Assembly (NCBI GenBank): GCA_022813865.1
Contig: JALDZX010000008.1
Coordinates: forward strand, 186,001 to 250,000
Length of the DNA stretch: 64,000 nucleotides
Direction: 5' to 3'
Source of the DNA: Xylographa opegraphella
Lineage: Eukaryota
In this document: positions 35,671 through 44,585 of the stretch, one piece after another
How positions within the stretch are numbered: position 1 is the stretch's first letter
How the letters are laid out: every line of letters begins with the position of its first letter
Translations under genes and position numbers: made by a program
Notes under the pieces: model-generated
Told to the model about the DNA's origin: nothing
Seen by the model: only the letters and a program-made list of their open reading frames with translations
Database searches by the model: none

Positions 35671-37929
35671 CTATATCCTTTGCTTGGGAGACTCGGCTCG
35701 CTTTCGTTTTCTGTTTGGTGACACTTCTTGCATAGCTGTTCTCGCGACGAAACCACCATTCTGAGTACCAATGATCCTTCCAGCTCGTTCAAAGTCAATA
35801 AGCATTACCCTTTTTACTTCTCGATTCCACAGAATATTAGGCGAGCGGATGTCCAAATGGTTTACCCCTTCAAGTCCAACCTGGGCCACTGTTCGCTGGA
35901 TCTCGCTGTGTAGCCATGGTAGCCTGCCTAGCGTTCCTACTTCGTCCCCCCCCCAGGACATCAAAAGCATGTGAAGTATTCTGACGTTCAAATCAAGGTC
36001 ATACCACTCCAGGAGGTCAACGTTCCCCAAATACACTGGAACTGCGGTTCCTTGGATGGCCGCCATTTGTCGATACATCGCACCTTCCTTCTTCAAATCG
36101 CTTACAAAGGCCTTCACCGTCCCCTTGCCAACAAATACATAGCCATATTGAGCCAGAGTGATCCTGAAAAGAGCCCCTCGCGCACCCTGTATACCTAGCG
36201 GCTCGCAATTATGATCAAGGTCGTCCGCGAGCTGTTTTTGAACGAGACTGGTGAAATCGAGTGTGGAGATGGCGTGATTTTCACCATATCTGCGATGTTG
36301 CAACACGTTGGGGCAATTTCCGTCCAGCGGCAGCCTTCGTGATATACCTAGTAAACATCGTTGTGTGCAGTATGACGACTGTATACTTTTACCACCGTTC
36401 ACACTGCTGCTGCTGCTGCTGCTATTATTGTTATTACCACCATCTCTTCTCTCATTGTTGTCTTTAGCCCCTCCATCCTTCCTCTCTTTAGTCGTGTTAC
36501 CATTGCCTGCACTGGATATGTCCCTCCTCGGCTTCCCGGAATCCCTTGACGCGTCCGGATCGTCTTGTCGATCATTTCGAGATTCATGTAACTTATCGTC
36601 GAGACATTTCTTTCTTGCCCTGGTGAGTACTGGAGATGACCGGCCGCTTGGATCCCTTCGTCCTTTGTAAGCAGATGGTGGTGTGAGCTTCCTTTCGCTT
36701 TCAGGGATTTGCCGGAGAATGTTCTCGTAATCGACGTCGTACTTTTCCAACTTCTTTTTAGCCTCTTTTCGCCACTTATGACTCCTCCGTACTGACCGAC
36801 AAGCCATCACACACAAAACTATCACTTGGCTGATAGCTGTTCGTGCATAAAGAAAGCCGGCCTCGTTGTCGTCAACTTCATCATCCGGAACAGCCACATG
36901 GTAGTACAAAGTCGTTGGATCGTCAATCTTGATATGCAGAAAAACGAATGCCTTCCCGGTTGTGAGGTAGCTGTACTCAAGACCAGTTTGAATCATATAA
37001 TGGAAGGCTTGCGTTGCCACAGCTGCGACCAGTTTGTCTGCATTGTATTGTAATTTTGCACCTTCTTCAACCGGAATTGTGATCCGTTCGATAACTTCTT
37101 CCTTCACATTCATCTCTCGGAAACCTGCTCGAATGTTACCGACCAGAAGCTTGTGCGGTGGCTTATATTCAACGATGAACAACAACTGACGCAGGCCATC
37201 CATATTTTTGTACACGCAGAACTGATCTGCATAGGGCCGCACTAATTTTGAATCGATACTGGACCCAGAGTTGGATGATGAGAACGAGGACGATCGAGAC
37301 GACTGTGGGCTCGTTTGAGGGGTTTGGATGTGTAAACGCTCTCGGACTTCTTCTGCCGTATCGCTAAGGGAGTTCGCATGGTTGTCAAATATAATACCCT
37401 GCCCAAGCTGAAGTCCTTGCTGGGCATCCTTTCCGTTGGTCATCTGGCTGATAACGTCACTAACCATGTCTTCTACTGCTACCCGCTCGTAATGCTCCAG
37501 ATCCTGTTCACTTGCAAGACTTCGGCGGCAGATCTTCCGACCTGTATCTTGAAGGCTGATGATGGGACTAAATAGTCGTGGGGCTGGCCCATTTGGCGGA
37601 TGAAGACACTTGTATACACTATCAAAGGTATCTTGCTGGAGCTGTGGAAATTCTTCCCATTGCCTCAAAGTCTTGGGGAAGTATTTGTTGCTCGGATTTG
37701 TAAAGCCTCTCGTTGTTAATCTCTTATCAGTCTCAACAACAAGTGGCCCGTGAAGATGCTCGTGGCAAGCTTCTAAGAACTCCTCGAAGGTTGTCTGTTG
37801 AGTGCGCTTGTGTTCTTCCTCGGCGCGTAGGACTGCTTCGCGTCGAGCTGCCTCTGCTTTGTCGGCACGGAGATTTGCTTCGTTGAGAAGCTGCTGAAAA
37901 TGCTGGAGCTGTGCTGCTTGAGAGGACAT
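35671..37929 (-). CDS. Intronless coiled-coil + PD-(D/E)xK nuclease-like + kinase-like protein
   Basis: N-terminal coiled coil (EANLRADKAEAARREA), ADQFCVY...FIVEYKPPHK (D...ExK), YCTQRCL Cys motif, C-terminal kinase-like QGARG...FVGKG...HLDIRSPNILWN...LIDFE. Confidence 0.8.
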   Translation of the reverse strand: MSSQAAQLQHFQQLLNEANLRADKAEAARREAVLRAEEEHKRTQQTTFEEFLEACHEHLHGPLVVETDKRLTTRGFTNPSNKYFPKTLRQWEEFPQLQQDTFDSVYKCLHPPNGPAPRLFSPIISLQDTGRKICRRSLASEQDLEHYERVAVEDMVSDVISQMTNGKDAQQGLQLGQGIIFDNHANSLSDTAEEVRERLHIQTPQTSPQSSRSSSFSSSNSGSSIDSKLVRPYADQFCVYKNMDGLRQLLFIVEYKPPHKLLVGNIRAGFREMNVKEEVIERITIPVEEGAKLQYNADKLVAAVATQAFHYMIQTGLEYSYLTTGKAFVFLHIKIDDPTTLYYHVAVPDDEVDDNEAGFLYARTAISQVIVLCVMACRSVRRSHKWRKEAKKKLEKYDVDYENILRQIPESERKLTPPSAYKGRRDPSGRSSPVLTRARKKCLDDKLHESRNDRQDDPDASRDSGKPRRDISSAGNGNTTKERKDGGAKDNNERRDGGNNNNSSSSSSSVNGGKSIQSSYCTQRCLLGISRRLPLDGNCPNVLQHRRYGENHAISTLDFTSLVQKQLADDLDHNCEPLGIQGARGALFRITLAQYGYVFVGKGTVKAFVSDLKKEGAMYRQMAAIQGTAVPVYLGNVDLLEWYDLDLNVRILHMLLMSWGGDEVGTLGRLPWLHSEIQRTVAQVGLEGVNHLDIRSPNILWNREVKRVMLIDFERAGRIIGTQNGGFVARTAMQEVSPNRKRKRAESPKQRI

Positions 37930-39030: not shown

Positions 39031-39351
39031 TGGTTGACCTGACTCTGCTGTGACCCCGCTACATCGGCCCCTAACCAGCCCCAGCAAAGGCGCCAAGAGA
39101 AATCACGTTTACCGCACCCGCTCCACAGCTCGTCTCCACTCCACAGTCCCAAAACCTGATACTTCGTACTTTCCTCATCCTCAACCCACCTCAACATCAC
39201 CACCCCAAAACATACAAACATCCTCTCTCACACCCACAATTCCAAAGCCTACTCCACCCATCCACCAAACCCCCTCCTCACCCCCCAAAACCACCAGTAC
39301 ACAACCACAACCACCTCACACAAACCCCCCCCCCCAAACCACCCCGCAAAA

Positions 39352-39525
39352 ATGTGCACCGCCCCCGCCTCCCCACCCATTAACGGCGTCATCCCCACCT
39401 CCAGCAGCAGCAGCTCCGTCACCACAGTCGGCAAGCCGGCCGGGACGGAGCCCGGCAGGACGAAGTGCATCGAGTGCGACGGCTACGAGTGCTGCTGCAT
39501 CCCCATTCCGTGCACGGTCATGTGA
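39352..39525 (+). CDS. 57-aa Cys-rich peptide with C-terminal CaaX prenylation box
   Basis: MCTAPASPPINGVIPTSSSSSSVTTVGKPAGTEPGRTKCIECDGYECCCIPIPCTVM*. Strong start context (CAAAAATG), C/A-rich leader, C/G-ending codons. Below the ORF-track length cut-off. Confidence 0.8.
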   Translation: MCTAPASPPINGVIPTSSSSSSVTTVGKPAGTEPGRTKCIECDGYECCCIPIPCTVM

Positions 39526-40129
39526 GCGGTCAGAAGGTGGGATGCCGTGGATGGGGAATGCACGAGATACGAATTGCGGGATAGGGAAAGGGTATGATAA
39601 ATTTCTTGGGGGGTTTTTATTATGATTCGCATGGATTACGATGGATGGGGTGAGTGGATGGCAAGAGTCGATGATGGGGAGTGTGGTTGGGGATGACATA
39701 CTACAATTGGCAATTCTACACAACTGATTTCGCGTGGGGGGTGACCAATAACGACTCTTCATGTGGCAGTTTGAACAATACGACTCTTCATGTGACATAG
39801 AAGGTTCTTCAATCCATACAAGCACAAGCCATCTTTTCCGCGTGCTGTATAACCATGAGCAGCCAGAAAGACGCTATCCCAAACAACTAAAGGAAGTAAG
39901 CACTTCGCACAATGTACGTAATGACTGAAGACGAAACCATACAATGCAAGGGTATCCGCAAAATACGCTTCAAACCATTTCATGAAAACCAAATTCTCCC
40001 AAGCCATACAACCACATAATCCGGTGCCGGGTTAACGATAGTAATCTGTGTGGTTCCCACAATTAAAGAGTCTCCGAACTCGACGCTACTAGTGCGGTGA
40101 ACACCCATGCAGCTGACACTCCGCAATGA

Positions 40130-43100
40130 TCATGGCTTTGGCGATCCCAGCGAGAGACTGGTCCTGGAGCCGGTAGCCTTCGAAAGCATCGTCACGAGCC
40201 TGAATGAATGTGAGCAATCGGATAGCGAGCAAACAATACTGCGCTCTCACCTCTCGGACTCGCCAATCATATCCTCATTCACTCCCTCAAGTTGGCGGAT
40301 CTGCTCCTGAATACCCGCCATCTATCACATCATAGCGTTAGCAAGTCTGTCCTAGTCGTCATGCCCATTGACAAGAAAGCTCAGTGTAGGAGAGGTAAGA
40401 GGACAATCGAAGGAGATAGGAGTAGATAGAAAGGGTGGTCCCACAGTTCCTTCGATCGACGAACCCAGCTCCTCGGCTTCCGCTTCTCTTTCAACTTCCA
40501 CGAAGCCATCATCATTGGAATCCGCTGGCCATCTGCTGGTGCGCAGCCCCTTCTTCGACACCGGCGTGGCGGCAAACTCTTTCCCATCACTTCGCTTGGT
40601 CTTCATTTCCGTCAGCTCGGCCGTAGTGACTTTGAGTGCAGCTTCCATCTCGCGGACACGCGTGGCATGAGCTTCAGCGGTCCTACTGATTTCGGCTATC
40701 TGCTTCTTCAGCCTATCGTTCTTGTCACGCTCCTTATCGGCGATTATCTGCAGTGCATCGAGCTCTTGCATGATTTCGGAGCCTACTGCAGTCTGACTGA
40801 GTCGCCTGTTTTTCGCTGTTGTCATTTCCGCTCGGACTTTCTCAAGTTCTGCTAAAGCGTTCTGGTGACGGTCCTCATGCTCTTTCGCTGCTAGAAGAGC
40901 TTTCTCGTGTTCTGCAGTCAGATCTTTTTGACGCGTCTCTAAATCTTGTACAAGTGCAAGATTCGTATCAAGCTTTGCTGACATCACTGTTTGTTGGTTT
41001 TCATGCTCCTTAATAGCTGCACTCAACTTATTATGGGCATCCTGCGCCTCTTGTCGGGCAACCTCTGCAGCATGCAGATGCTCTTGAGCAAGATCCTTGG
41101 CTGCTGGGAAGTCCGTGCGGAATTTCTCCAGCTCTGCCAACTGGCCGACCAGCCTATCCCTGACCTCTGCACCTTGCTTCCTCTCCTTTTCGCGCTTTTC
41201 TGCCTCAATACTCATCGTCTCTTGAAGCTTGGTCAATTCGAGTTCATGACTTCGCCGTAGCGATTCAAGTTCTTCCTTCAGCGCAAGGGCCTCCGAAGCG
41301 TCAGAGCGCATTCTGTCCGCCTCCTCCGATACAGCAATTAACTTTTCGATAGTCTCCTTGTCTTCTGCGAGCAAGTTTCGTAGATCTTCTAGCTCTATTG
41401 ACTGTTGCGAATTTACGGCCTCAATATGCACTTTCTCCTCCTGTAGCTTTTCGAGTGCCAGCTGGCTTTGTGCAACATCCCTTTCGGTTATCGTGATTTG
41501 TGATTGAAGCTCTTCGAGCTCCTTAAAATGTTCGTCCCGAGTTTCACGCTCGATGCTGCTATGTAATTCTCGACTGGATTGAAGTTCGTTTTCTGCATTC
41601 GCTAGATCTTTGCGATGTTGGAGTACTTGCTCTTGTAGGTCCGAAAGGACCTTCTGGTGGCCTTCTCTGATAGCTGTCAAATTCTCGCCATGCTGACGCG
41701 ATAGGTCATTGATAGATTCCCTATGTTTCTCCGCAGCCTTTTCCACTTCCTGAGCTGCAGCAGTTTCGACCGTATCTCTAGCTTGCTGAATATAGCTTTC
41801 ATGACTTTGCTTGAGCTCCTCGAGCTCATGGTTGTGTGATTCTGTCATTTTGCGCGACATTTCAGTGTGCTCTGCCTTGAGACGGTTGAGAGAAGCTTCC
41901 GAGTTATCTTGCGCCTGCTGCAAATCTCGCTTCAGTAAGTCGTACTTCTCTTGTAGGTCTTTAAGTGCGCCGTCTGCCTTTCGCACGCTTTCAGCCTTCA
42001 TTGCTTCCACCTCATCAGCATGGTTCTTGCGAACGCTCTCTAATTCTGCTCTGTGTTTCTCCGTGAGATTGGAGCTCTCTGAACTTTTCTCTTGAAGTGC
42101 TCGTGCTGTGTGTTCCAGGTCCTCTTTCATTTTGCTAATGATGGACGCGTGTTGCTCTTCCTTTCCTTGGCTATCTTTGTCGAAAGTCTCCAAGACCTTT
42201 TTCAAGCTGGAAATCTCTCCGGAAGCATCCTCAAGGGCCTTTTCAAGCAGTGTTTTTGCTTCAGCATTGGAACTACTCTGGGCGCTGACGTTTTCTAAAT
42301 CTCGTTGCAATTTCGATTTAGAGGCAGACAGAGCTGATAATGCTTCATTATGCTCTTGTTTGACTTTTTCAAGATCCGTCCGCAGACGTTGCAGCTCTTC
42401 GTTATGATCAGAAGCTGCACTTCGGCTTCTTTGATTCAAATCATCTTTGGCTGCTTGCAAGGCCAACTCATGCTCGGAATGTACTTTGGTCATAGTCTCG
42501 TCATGCTCTTGAATTAACCGCACTTTCAGAGCATCAATTTCACGATCCTTGCGTTCTTTCAAAATCTGTAACTCATCCTGAAGACTTTCGATGACCTGAC
42601 CCATGCTGTAAATCTCACTTCGTGTGGTTAGCTCAATGTTTTGGCGCTCATCCATCGTTGTAGCTAAATCGGCTTCGAGCTTGCGAATTTGTTGTCGGGA
42701 CTCTTGTTCGACTCGTTGTAGCTCCACGACGTGCTGAGAAGTGGTAGCTTCTGCATCCTCCAGCTCATGGTTGTGAGTGATTACTAGTTGCTCCAGCTCG
42801 CGCTGCATAGTTAAAGTGTCTCCCTCTTTCATCTCGATCAATTCGTCCTTCTCTTTCAGAATGACCTCGAACTGTGTCTGAGCATCCTCCAGCTCATTTG
42901 CCTTTCTCTGCTTTTCTTTCTCAATTTGACTCTTGAGTATTGACAACTCTGATAGTAGGGTTTCTACTCTTGAAGCTGCAGCGGAACCACTGATCTTTTC
43001 GGCATTCAATTGATCATGTAGAATTTTAAGTGACTCTTCATGTGCGCGCTGTTGGTTTTCCAGAAGCCGAGCGGCGTCCTGTGAACCTTTTTCGACCGAA

Positions 43101-44585
43101 GATGTTTTGGCTTTTTCTATATCCCGTAAAGATCTCTCGATATATTTTATGTGTTTGGCTTCTGCTTCGCCAAGCTGACTGCGCAAAGCTTCGGTTTCGG
43201 CTACGTGTACAACAGAAAGCTCTTCGATTTTGGAGCTGTGCTCGAGGCGGAGGTTCTCAGTAGTAATCTCAAAGTCTTTTGATGCTTGTGCCACCTTTTT
43301 GCTATAGTCGTTCATTTTGTTCTGCGTATACTCCAGATCGGCTTCCAATGTCGCAATCTGTGCGGATAATTAGTCAATATATCAGCACAATACCTTAGGA
43401 GGCTGGTTTACTTACCTTTTCTTGGCTGGCGGTAAGCGCCGAGTTGAGTTCTTCGATCTGCTTCTGGGCTAAGGTATCCGGTATTACATTTAGATCCGAG
43501 ACGTTCGTGGGCAGCTGTTCCTCTCTGATTGGGGGTGTGCCGTCGGTTGAACTGAGAGGCGGCTTACCCTCCTTACGTCGGGCTTCTTCAAGCTGTTCGC
43601 GCAAGTCGGCTAGAGTCTCGTCCACTTTTCGGCCATACTCTTCTTTAACCTCATCGCTTTCCTCGCCATCTTCAGCCATAGCAATTTTGAGCATCTCATT
43701 CACAAGCTCCATCTCTTGCAGTCTTTGCTCGATTGTGACGGACATGGTTGATTTGCGAGGACCCAGACCAGGCCGTACATGTCTCATAGCCGGCGCAGGT
43801 GAAGACTCCGCGGAATCGGTTGATTTAATAGCTGGTAGTGGTGCTGGAGATGCAGGAATAGTACTCAATCTCTTCTTGGAGGCATCCACCGCTGAAGCAC
43901 TATGAACACCTCTGGTTGAGCTGAGAGGAGCCCGTCCACTTCGCACTGTGCTTGAGGTAACCCCGGTCCTTGCTGGTATTGTAGCAGACTTGATGGCTAC
44001 CGTCGTAGGACTTGTGACAGAAGGTCTACTTGATGATATGTTCTTGTCACTTAGAGCAGCGCTACCGAGTGTGGAGCGCCGGTCTGCAGATGTCAACGAT
44101 TTATGGCCAGTGGACTTGGTCAAGGCAGATGGAGCAAGTGACGCTCGCTTTGCCGCACTGGAAACTATAGGCCTCTTGTTTTCCGTCCCTTCAGCTGCAG
44201 GCATTTTCCTTGTCTCATCTACTGAAGTAGTCGACAGCCTCGGCTTGTGAACTGAACTTGACGCTGTCGATGTCACTACCCCGGGGACGGGTCTCCGAGC
44301 AGAGGATGTCGCTATAGGACGAGACGGTGGCTTACTGAGACCATTACCGACAGTTGACCGAGTGTTTGGAATAGGGTTGGTATCCGATGTTGGCGCCGAT
44401 GCTTCTGTACGCTTGATAGTACTTGTTGGACGTTTTGGAGGTATACCATTCCTTCTCGGAGAGGATATTGCAGGTTTGTTGCCTTCTCGGGAACTTGCAT
44501 CCCGAGTAGTCAACGTCGGACTCTCGGGGAGCCTCTCCTCAGCAGGAGGAGTACCCAGGGGAGTCTCGGAGCCCGTCGAAGTCAT
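40130..44585 (-). CDS. Large coiled-coil protein with basic Ser/Thr/Pro-rich N-terminus
   Basis: Exons ~44585-43415, 43358-40445, 40322-40251 and 40200-40130. About 1000 aa of heptad-rich E/K/L/Q sequence, RKSTMSVTIEQRL motif, C-terminal GLRTSRW and MAGIQEQIRQLE. Confidence 0.8.

Follow-up and report, generated by a model that had tools for sequence, protein, structure and literature searches.

The window analyzed here, a 64,000-nt stretch of the Xylographa opegraphella genome, contains a 57-aa open reading frame (ORF) whose direct translation ends in C-T-V-M and a stop, and it raises the question of whether so short a frame is a gene at all and, if so, whether its product is an a-factor-type mating pheromone or a lipidated peptide of another kind. 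The first-pass annotation had described a good start context, an S/T/P-rich N terminus, a CaaX end, and five extra Cys near the C terminus, and all of these features were confirmed. The start (gcaaaaATG) has an A at -3 and is the first in-frame ATG, and a single further ATG occurs in the 450 nt before it; Ser, Thr, and Pro make up 19 of the first 38 residues; and Cys39, Cys42, Cys47, Cys48, and Cys49 precede the CaaX Cys54, with a further Cys at position 2. The GC content is 0.93 at third codon positions (GC3) versus 0.54 at the other two (GC12). The parts of the gene are listed in Table 1.

Table 1. Parts of the peptide gene and of its 5' leader (positions in the window)
Feature	Positions	Strand	Basis
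Coding sequence without introns, encodes the 57-aa Cys-rich CaaX microprotein, TGA stop	39352..39525	+	Translation, single copy, homologues
Variable leader (residues 1-38), rich in S/T/P; contains Cys2 and a K-P dipeptide that is conserved	39352..39465	+	Alignments
Thiol module (residues 39-53), near-invariant: C-x2-C-x4-C-C-C-[IL]-P-(I-P)	39466..39510	+	Conservation; pN/pS 0.059
CaaX box C-T-V-M and stop, predicted farnesylation	39511..39525	+	CaaX-then-stop conserved; terminal M
Putative 132-nt intron in the A/C-rich 5' leader	39166..39297	+	GTACTT donor-like at 39166, CTCAC branch-like at 39277, CAG ending at 39297

Against a chance level defined by 40 Markov-resampled windows, a CaaX-like end is found in two of the 393 ATG ORFs of 30 to 80 aa in the window (resampled mean, 0.6), and the combination of CaaX with at least six Cys in the last 20 residues in just one, the 57-aa ORF (resampled mean, 0). 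The gene lies at 225 kb of contig C220 and is present in a single copy in the 24.7-Mb genome (G000), as indicated by a protein search and a pattern search. When the last 19 codons of the window gene were compared with 19 distinct DNA tails, which came from 22 usable metagenome loci out of 24 (two were dropped for indels), pN/pS was 0.059, with a pN of 0.045 and a pS of 0.76, a level at which synonymous sites are saturated; for the tail codons outside the search pattern, the ratio was 0.066. A stop directly follows the CaaX box in all 24 genomic loci (TGA in 10, TAA in 7, and TAG in 7). Conserved homologues that keep the CaaX box, which the first-pass annotation had asked for together with a test of selection, thus exist, and the pN/pS of their tail is about 0.06.

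The most skeptical reading would be that the frame arose by chance or is the shadow of a longer ORF (160 aa, 39316-39798) that overlaps it on the opposite strand. However, the antisense frame in register has a pN/pS of 3.6, the remaining four frames contain stops in 7 to 15 of 20 sequences, the 57-aa protein has more than 100 homologues, and its relatives are represented by spliced-form database proteins and by published RNA-seq. This reading, to which we give practically no credence, is already refuted by conservation, and the 57-aa ORF is a real, constrained protein-coding gene. With its pN/pS of 3.6, the antisense ORF was set aside as a GC3 shadow.

Upstream of the coding sequence, a 132-nt leader intron is possible, and it is proposed on the grounds of splice-like sites in the window and because one relative provides evidence of splicing in its 5' leader. 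This evidence comes from four database proteins (P0160, P0161, P0121, and P0124) that, at locus L016 (4840-4930), fuse an upstream exon to the leader across a GT-AG intron. About 230 nt past the stop, two 18-nt direct repeats, 94% alike and 29 nt apart, occupy positions 39751-39797, possibly within the 3' UTR of the peptide gene.

The encoded protein offers little to structure prediction. AlphaFold2 returned no fold (pLDDT, 45.7; pTM, 0.13) and predicted an unstructured leader, and the best 19-residue hydropathy is 0.97, low for a membrane helix. The protein has neither a signal peptide-like nor a membrane-spanning stretch, and a Pfam scan of the protein (P0001) returned no family.

The protein has relatives across filamentous ascomycetes. 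With the 57-aa sequence as the query, all 30 phmmer candidates had E values of 5e-9 or better; profile searches for the family accepted 121 of 3120 and 119 of 655 candidates and provided 44 representatives among 1.84 billion, and a metagenome scan for the module confirmed 24 of 36 pattern matches. None of the 15 pattern matches in prokaryotic genomes and none of the 29 in viral contigs were confirmed as relatives. The named matches include Choiromyces, Ascodesmis, and, weakly, Myriangium. By class, Leotiomycetes and Sordariomycetes account for most of the named matches; Choiromyces and Ascodesmis are taken as Pezizomycetes and Myriangium as a Dothideomycete, lineages having been confirmed for four species and one class. 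No Eurotiomycete names were present among the phmmer and profile matches. Taken together, these sequences point to an ancient single-copy gene of filamentous ascomycetes, whose 19-residue tail is nearly unchanged across fungal classes; gene callers often miss or mis-splice the gene.

Clean members of the family (n = 92) are 36 to 60 aa long. Their last 21 residues contain six Cys in 89 and seven in 3; a Cys occurs within the first five residues in 66, a GPG-type motif in 83, and Gly2 in one. C39, C42, C47-49, and P53 are invariant across 47 aligned members, in which a Pfam scan found nothing but one unrelated weak match. In a redundant, Fusarium-rich set of 154 stored proteins that bear the module, 124 end in a CaaX box directly after it; among these 124, the box terminates with M in 79 cases and with L in 41. 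The GY dipeptide is present in 72 and replaced in 52, and 48 have GD, GE, or GR forms after CxxC. The other 30 of the 154, which do not end at the CaaX box and are candidate readthrough or C-terminally extended forms, were read as probably mis-spliced or mis-coded predictions because all 24 genomic loci stop at the CaaX box. P0131, a repetitive protein of 678 aa, was discarded as a composition artifact, and P0134, P0164, and P0166 were weak on the module profile after composition correction. P0134 keeps the family leader in front of a shorter W-F-C-C-V-V-M tail, and locus L025 (3079-3159) carries F-P-P-I-H between the CCC and the CaaX Cys.

Judged from its sequence, the 57-aa protein is a new member of a published but uncharacterized family, that of BCIN_13g03330. 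According to its source (PMC10569646), this family is characterized by 45 to 64 aa, an S/T-rich N terminus, and a CTVM-type end, a profile that fits the protein. Its last 21 residues equal those of the Sclerotinia sclerotiorum entry in the S10 File of that paper; the length of 57 aa, the M-C start, and the CTVM end are likewise in common with the family. Proteins identical to S10 File entries there (P0005, P0008, P0021, and P0023) were retrieved by phmmer with E values of 1e-11 to 1e-9. The X. opegraphella protein differs in its diverged leader, which is closest to those of P0060 and P0077 and does not contain NGPGSAA, a motif that most members from the Leotiomycetes and Sordariomycetes have, and in a gene that is not adjacent to MED7. 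As 83 of the 92 clean members have a motif of this type, the host fungus may belong to neither of the two best-sampled classes. The label "unannotated" in the first-pass annotation therefore holds for the exact sequence, which is absent from a collection of 15 billion proteins, but not for the family, which is annotated in many genomes and published. The accessible text of PMC10569646 reports no Sordariomycete, Pezizomycete, or Dothideomycete relatives and does not contain the terms "MED7," "palmito," or "metal." Neither the tail string CCCIPIPC nor FGSG_05361 was mentioned in the literature searched, which leaned toward open-access papers.

Orthology of the family across classes is shown by linkage to MED7. 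In 17 of 24 loci, a set that includes three near-duplicate pairs, MED7 lies convergent with the family gene within 279 to 786 nt; of the seven loci without MED7, four extend no more than 420 nt downstream, and three lack it despite 5 kb. The linked loci include four (L008, L014, L018, and L020) that were classed as Sordariomycete type from their peptides. In X. opegraphella, MED7 is located at 92-93 kb of C220, 132 kb from the peptide gene, and the PAP2 neighbor is located at 276 kb of the same contig, at a distance of 50 kb. DUF747, the one upstream neighbor tested, is on another contig, and the importin, GNAT, and FtsJ neighbors of two relatives were found in the window. An intronless 752-aa ORF with a weak C-terminal Kdo/WaaP kinase-like match (35671-37929, minus strand) precedes a stretch richer in AT at 38.0-39.0 kb, and the two may mark a rearranged spot that separates the peptide gene from MED7. 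On the other side, a long coiled-coil-like gene without a clear Pfam family (40352-44585, minus strand) is convergent with the peptide gene; none of the 24 related loci has it as a neighbor.

The a-type pheromone of ascomycetes outside the Sordariomycetes has been a long-standing gap, and the BCIN_13g03330 family was published as its filler. In the screen of Wilson et al. in 2023, BCIN_13g03330 was the best a-factor candidate, with no fewer than 111 of the 124 Leotiomycete genomes carrying it (PMC10569646). On this reading, the 57-aa protein would be a precursor that is farnesylated, trimmed, exported, and sensed by Ste3 (PMC10569646). The first-pass annotation also leaned toward such a pheromone, and several features agree: the protein is short and S/T-rich, its ORF carries the C-terminal CaaX/CPAX end expected of a-factors, the CaaX box ends in M, GY is found in the majority of CaaX-ending members as counted above, and the genome has an intact STE3, on contig C13. 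The established a-factors (Neurospora crassa mfa-1, Fusarium graminearum ppg2, those of Colletotrichum and Huntiella, and Trichoderma reesei hpp1) are likewise tiny ORFs without a signal peptide that have an S/T-rich start and a CaaX/CPAX end. However, they have 21 to 24 aa with one Cys, or CaaX-bearing repeats, or 34 to 47 aa (Colletotrichum), and the CxxC-x4-CCC module is absent from those listed when compared by eye. In the 57-aa protein, the 7 residues closest to the CaaX Cys include three further Cys, whereas a mature a-factor of 6 to 11 residues plus the CaaX Cys would contain no further Cys cluster. Neurospora-type a-factors have GY directly beside the CaaX Cys, which is not the case in the 57-aa protein. 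No Pfam pheromone model matched P0001, but these models may not cover the a-factors of filamentous ascomycetes. The L ending of the CaaX box (41 of 124) was dropped as an argument against a pheromone, as Colletotrichum a-factors also end in CVIL.

The family also coexists with established a-factor genes, which lie at a different locus. In F. graminearum, FGSG_05361 is a family member (47% identity over 43 residues), while the a-factor, ppg2, is a different peptide of 21 aa with a single Cys that is encoded at the cyanase/EBP2 locus according to PMC3068285 and PMC8661429, the same sources that place a-factors at cyanase/EBP2 in most Sordariomycetes examined. In X. opegraphella, EBP2 is on contig C176 and the 57-aa gene is on C220, which is therefore not the mfa-1/ppg2 cyanase/EBP2 locus. 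The family gene is also retained where the a-factor or STE3 is lost. The Colletotrichum acutatum complex has lost its a-factor, according to the corresponding paper, but records of C. acutatum, C. fioriniae, and C. melonis, which represent strains other than those of that paper and whose annotated tails extend past the CaaX box, keep the family gene with the module intact. The gene is kept in 11 of 12 species without a functional STE3 (PMC10569646).

Expression of the relatives is independent of mating type. The first-pass annotation had suggested mating-type dependence as a check, and the published RNA-seq shows none in three Leotiomycete relatives (PMC10569646), whereas established a-factors are regulated by mating type in heterothallic species according to PMC3068285. 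In Botrytis cinerea, RPKM values range from 46 to 198 in four data sets, one of them from a MAT1-1 strain in which the gene reached 180 and ste3 was at 0, and expression is high in sclerotia and primordia; for A. resinae the value is 20, and for M. fructicola it is 0 in five of five data sets (PMC10569646). Expression is therefore not constitutive everywhere. The identity of the last 21 residues between X. opegraphella and S. sclerotiorum likewise stands against a pheromone, as mature a-pheromones differ between genera of the Ceratocystidaceae. Mating-type independence, high conservation, and retention without STE3 had been raised as doubts by the authors of the screen themselves (PMC10569646). 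Given the replaced GY, the coexistence with true a-factors, the mating-type independence, and another candidate in the same genome, an a-factor-like pheromone is not supported. We regard it as very improbable for the 57-aa protein, and the family is very probably something other than a-factor; the published assignment is probably wrong. What endures of the first reading is its other half, a prenylated, membrane-anchored peptide of unusual type, as the conserved CaaX micro-ORF with its extra Cys remains and the pheromone part falls away.

The other candidate is a separate predicted gene of the typical a-factor type on C176 (422319-422516, plus strand; L050, 1318-1515). Its two-exon model predicts a 30-aa precursor with a single Cys that starts M-P-P-A and ends N-P-Y-Y-G-C-A-V-M; exon 1 ends K-D-N-R, and the 105-nt intron is of the GT-AG type with a CTAAT branch site. 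The CaaX scan of the genome was restricted to C-[VTAIM]-[VIM]-M-stop and returned 42 sites, some of which are Ras and G-gamma tails, and this candidate is the only short one-intron gene model among them. Its neighbors are a PLD gene on one side and a Ybp2/glomulin gene on the other, and EBP2 is 28 kb away, with about seven genes in between; PLD did not turn up as an a-factor flank in the papers checked. Such proximity to EBP2 is expected by chance in about 0.2% of cases for a fixed site, and the candidate was picked before the position of EBP2 was looked up. Cyanase had no match in the genome, and a MYND scan that covered 18 of the 43 long ORFs in the surroundings of EBP2 gave none. From its sequence, the C176 gene is a more typical a-factor candidate than the 57-aa gene, and a genome that carries both offers a testable alternative to the published assignment.

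S-acylation typically takes place on Cys that shortly precede a prenylated one, as established for Ras. A CaaX box ending in M directs farnesylation (PMC3068285), and yeast CYSTM proteins bind the plasma membrane via palmitoylated C-terminal Cys (PMC10840359). Because of the CaaX-Met end, the Ras-type upstream Cys, and the palmitoylation of yeast CYSTM proteins, we infer a doubly lipidated protein of the cytosolic leaflet. In the reading that we moderately favor, the 57-aa protein would be a prenylated and probably S-acylated microprotein on the cytosolic face of a membrane, with a CxxC/CCC module that makes it resemble, without being, a CYSTM/CYSPD protein. It would be synthesized in the cytosol, as it has no signal peptide and no transmembrane helix, and prenylated at the CaaX Cys; S-acylation would then follow, probably on the nearby CCC and in many members on Cys2 or Cys3 as well, and the double lipidation would tether it to the membrane. 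The membrane-held CxxC thiols, together with acidic residues, might bind a metal or switch their redox state, and the invariant I-P-I-P stretch might dock a conserved partner, so that the 19-residue tail would be the working part and the leader a loose spacer. These steps differ in their likelihood: prenylation is highly probable, membrane retention with S-acylation is likely, and a metal or redox role is tentative. The CCC residues are candidate S-acylation sites, and CxxC is a candidate metal or redox knuckle. As PMC10840359 points out, S-acylation would draw on the same Cys as metal binding, and therefore both cannot be complete at once.

The likeness to the CYSTM/CYSPD proteins (yeast Cpp1-3, Schizosaccharomyces pombe Uvi15, and plant PCC1 and CDT1; PF12734) consists of small size, a disordered polar head, and a C-terminal patch that in CYSTM proteins has 5 to 6 Cys, 3 to 4 of them consecutive, compared with six Cys and a CCC here (PMC2804304). 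Yet the 57-aa family is not CYSTM, as it fails on three counts. PF12734 matches neither the 57-aa protein nor any of 47 family members; the acidic residue that follows the patch in CYSTM proteins is replaced by I-P-I-P-C-T-V-M; and the head is S/T/P-rich without Gln instead of P/Q-rich (both CYSTM features from PMC2804304). The CaaX end and the tail prolines are further differences. A separate gene that matches PF12734 above the cutoff is present in the same genome (C146, 304702-304809; L076). The nearest named look-alikes of the 57-aa protein in the ESM Atlas are CYSTM-named clusters at 0.76, a value that shuffled proteins also reach.

Plant HIPP proteins combine CxxC with a prenylated C terminus, and MUB/UBL3 proteins carry a lipidated, Cys-rich CaaX tail on a ubiquitin fold. 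The HIPP-like layout of CxxC plus CaaX is one reason to consider a prenylated mini-metallothionein or zinc knuckle, in which all five upstream Cys would remain free of S-acylation and coordinate Zn, Cu, or Cd on the membrane. The CxxC spacing is invariant, and the next residue is often G, as it would be in a knuckle turn (the 48 of 124 members noted above); the last 19 residues of the members contain about 2.8 acidic residues, one UniRef record is automatically named "Metallothionein," and CYSTM proteins have been proposed as metal chelators (PMC2804304). However, the Pfam metallothionein, HMA, and zinc-knuckle models had no match in 47 members, which sets the family apart from the HIPP proteins with their HMA domain; the PDB holds no relative (the one match, a proteasome subunit, has an E value of 1.4); conservation of the residues other than Cys goes well beyond what a simple chelator would require; and no report of metal induction was found in the literature searched. 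We consider this alternative unlikely.

The near-invariant non-Cys residues of the tail would fit a receptor ligand equally well, and the pattern of a variable leader and an invariant tail is that of peptide precursors. The protein might therefore be an exported, non-mating lipopeptide signal with an autocrine or community role, processed at the CaaX box, cleaved near K-T-K before Cys39, and recognized by a conserved receptor outside the mating system. In two distant proteins the module directly follows Gly-Gly, a natural cleavage point, and the high expression in B. cinerea sclerotia and primordia cited above would suit such a signal. But a dibasic site is absent in 88 of 92 members, the leader varies from about 17 to 40 residues without a fixed cleavage motif, and five extra Cys beside the prenyl site favor membrane retention, by analogy with Ras and G-gamma tails, both of which are present in the genome. 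Export is thus improbable, and the membrane-retained microprotein remains the preferred reading.

For the two distant proteins, scores came from a profile of the module that drew on 62 tails of ascomycete members, with 3000 tail shuffles as the background. P0167, from the Microbotryomycetes, reached an E value of 1e-4 and 39.2 bits (best shuffle, 12.4), and its module directly follows L-R-H-R-G-G, an LRxRGG motif. P0169, from a transcriptome of Echinostelium bisporum, reached an E value of 1 and 26.8 bits (best shuffle, 8.6); its module follows a ubiquitin-like domain that ends in G-G and matches PF00240 and PF11976. P0169 shares the ubiquitin-like domain and the Cys-rich tail with MUB/UBL3 and differs in keeping Gly-Gly before the tail. 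No Gly-Gly junction was present before the module in the ascomycete members examined. With one example each and possible contamination, the two proteins are a hint and a lead to follow.

They suggest a bolder and rather improbable idea, namely, that the 19 residues of the C-x2-C-x4-CCC-IPIP-CaaX tail form a module of ancient eukaryotic origin, shared by ascomycetes, basidiomycetes, and amoebozoa, that in some lineages would be freed by deubiquitinase-type cleavage from a ubiquitin-like or LRxRGG leader. The free lipopeptide, tethered to a membrane, would sense metal or redox state and have a conserved partner of its own. If true, it would represent a class of lipidated peptides distinct from pheromones, CYSTM proteins, and metallothioneins; the "Leotiomycete a-factor" would be misassigned, and the real a-factors outside the Sordariomycetes would be small spliced genes near EBP2/PLD, like the one on C176. 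In the ESM Atlas, the basidiomycete relative scored 0.92 against a CYSTM-named cluster, a name that was given automatically and has no Pfam support.
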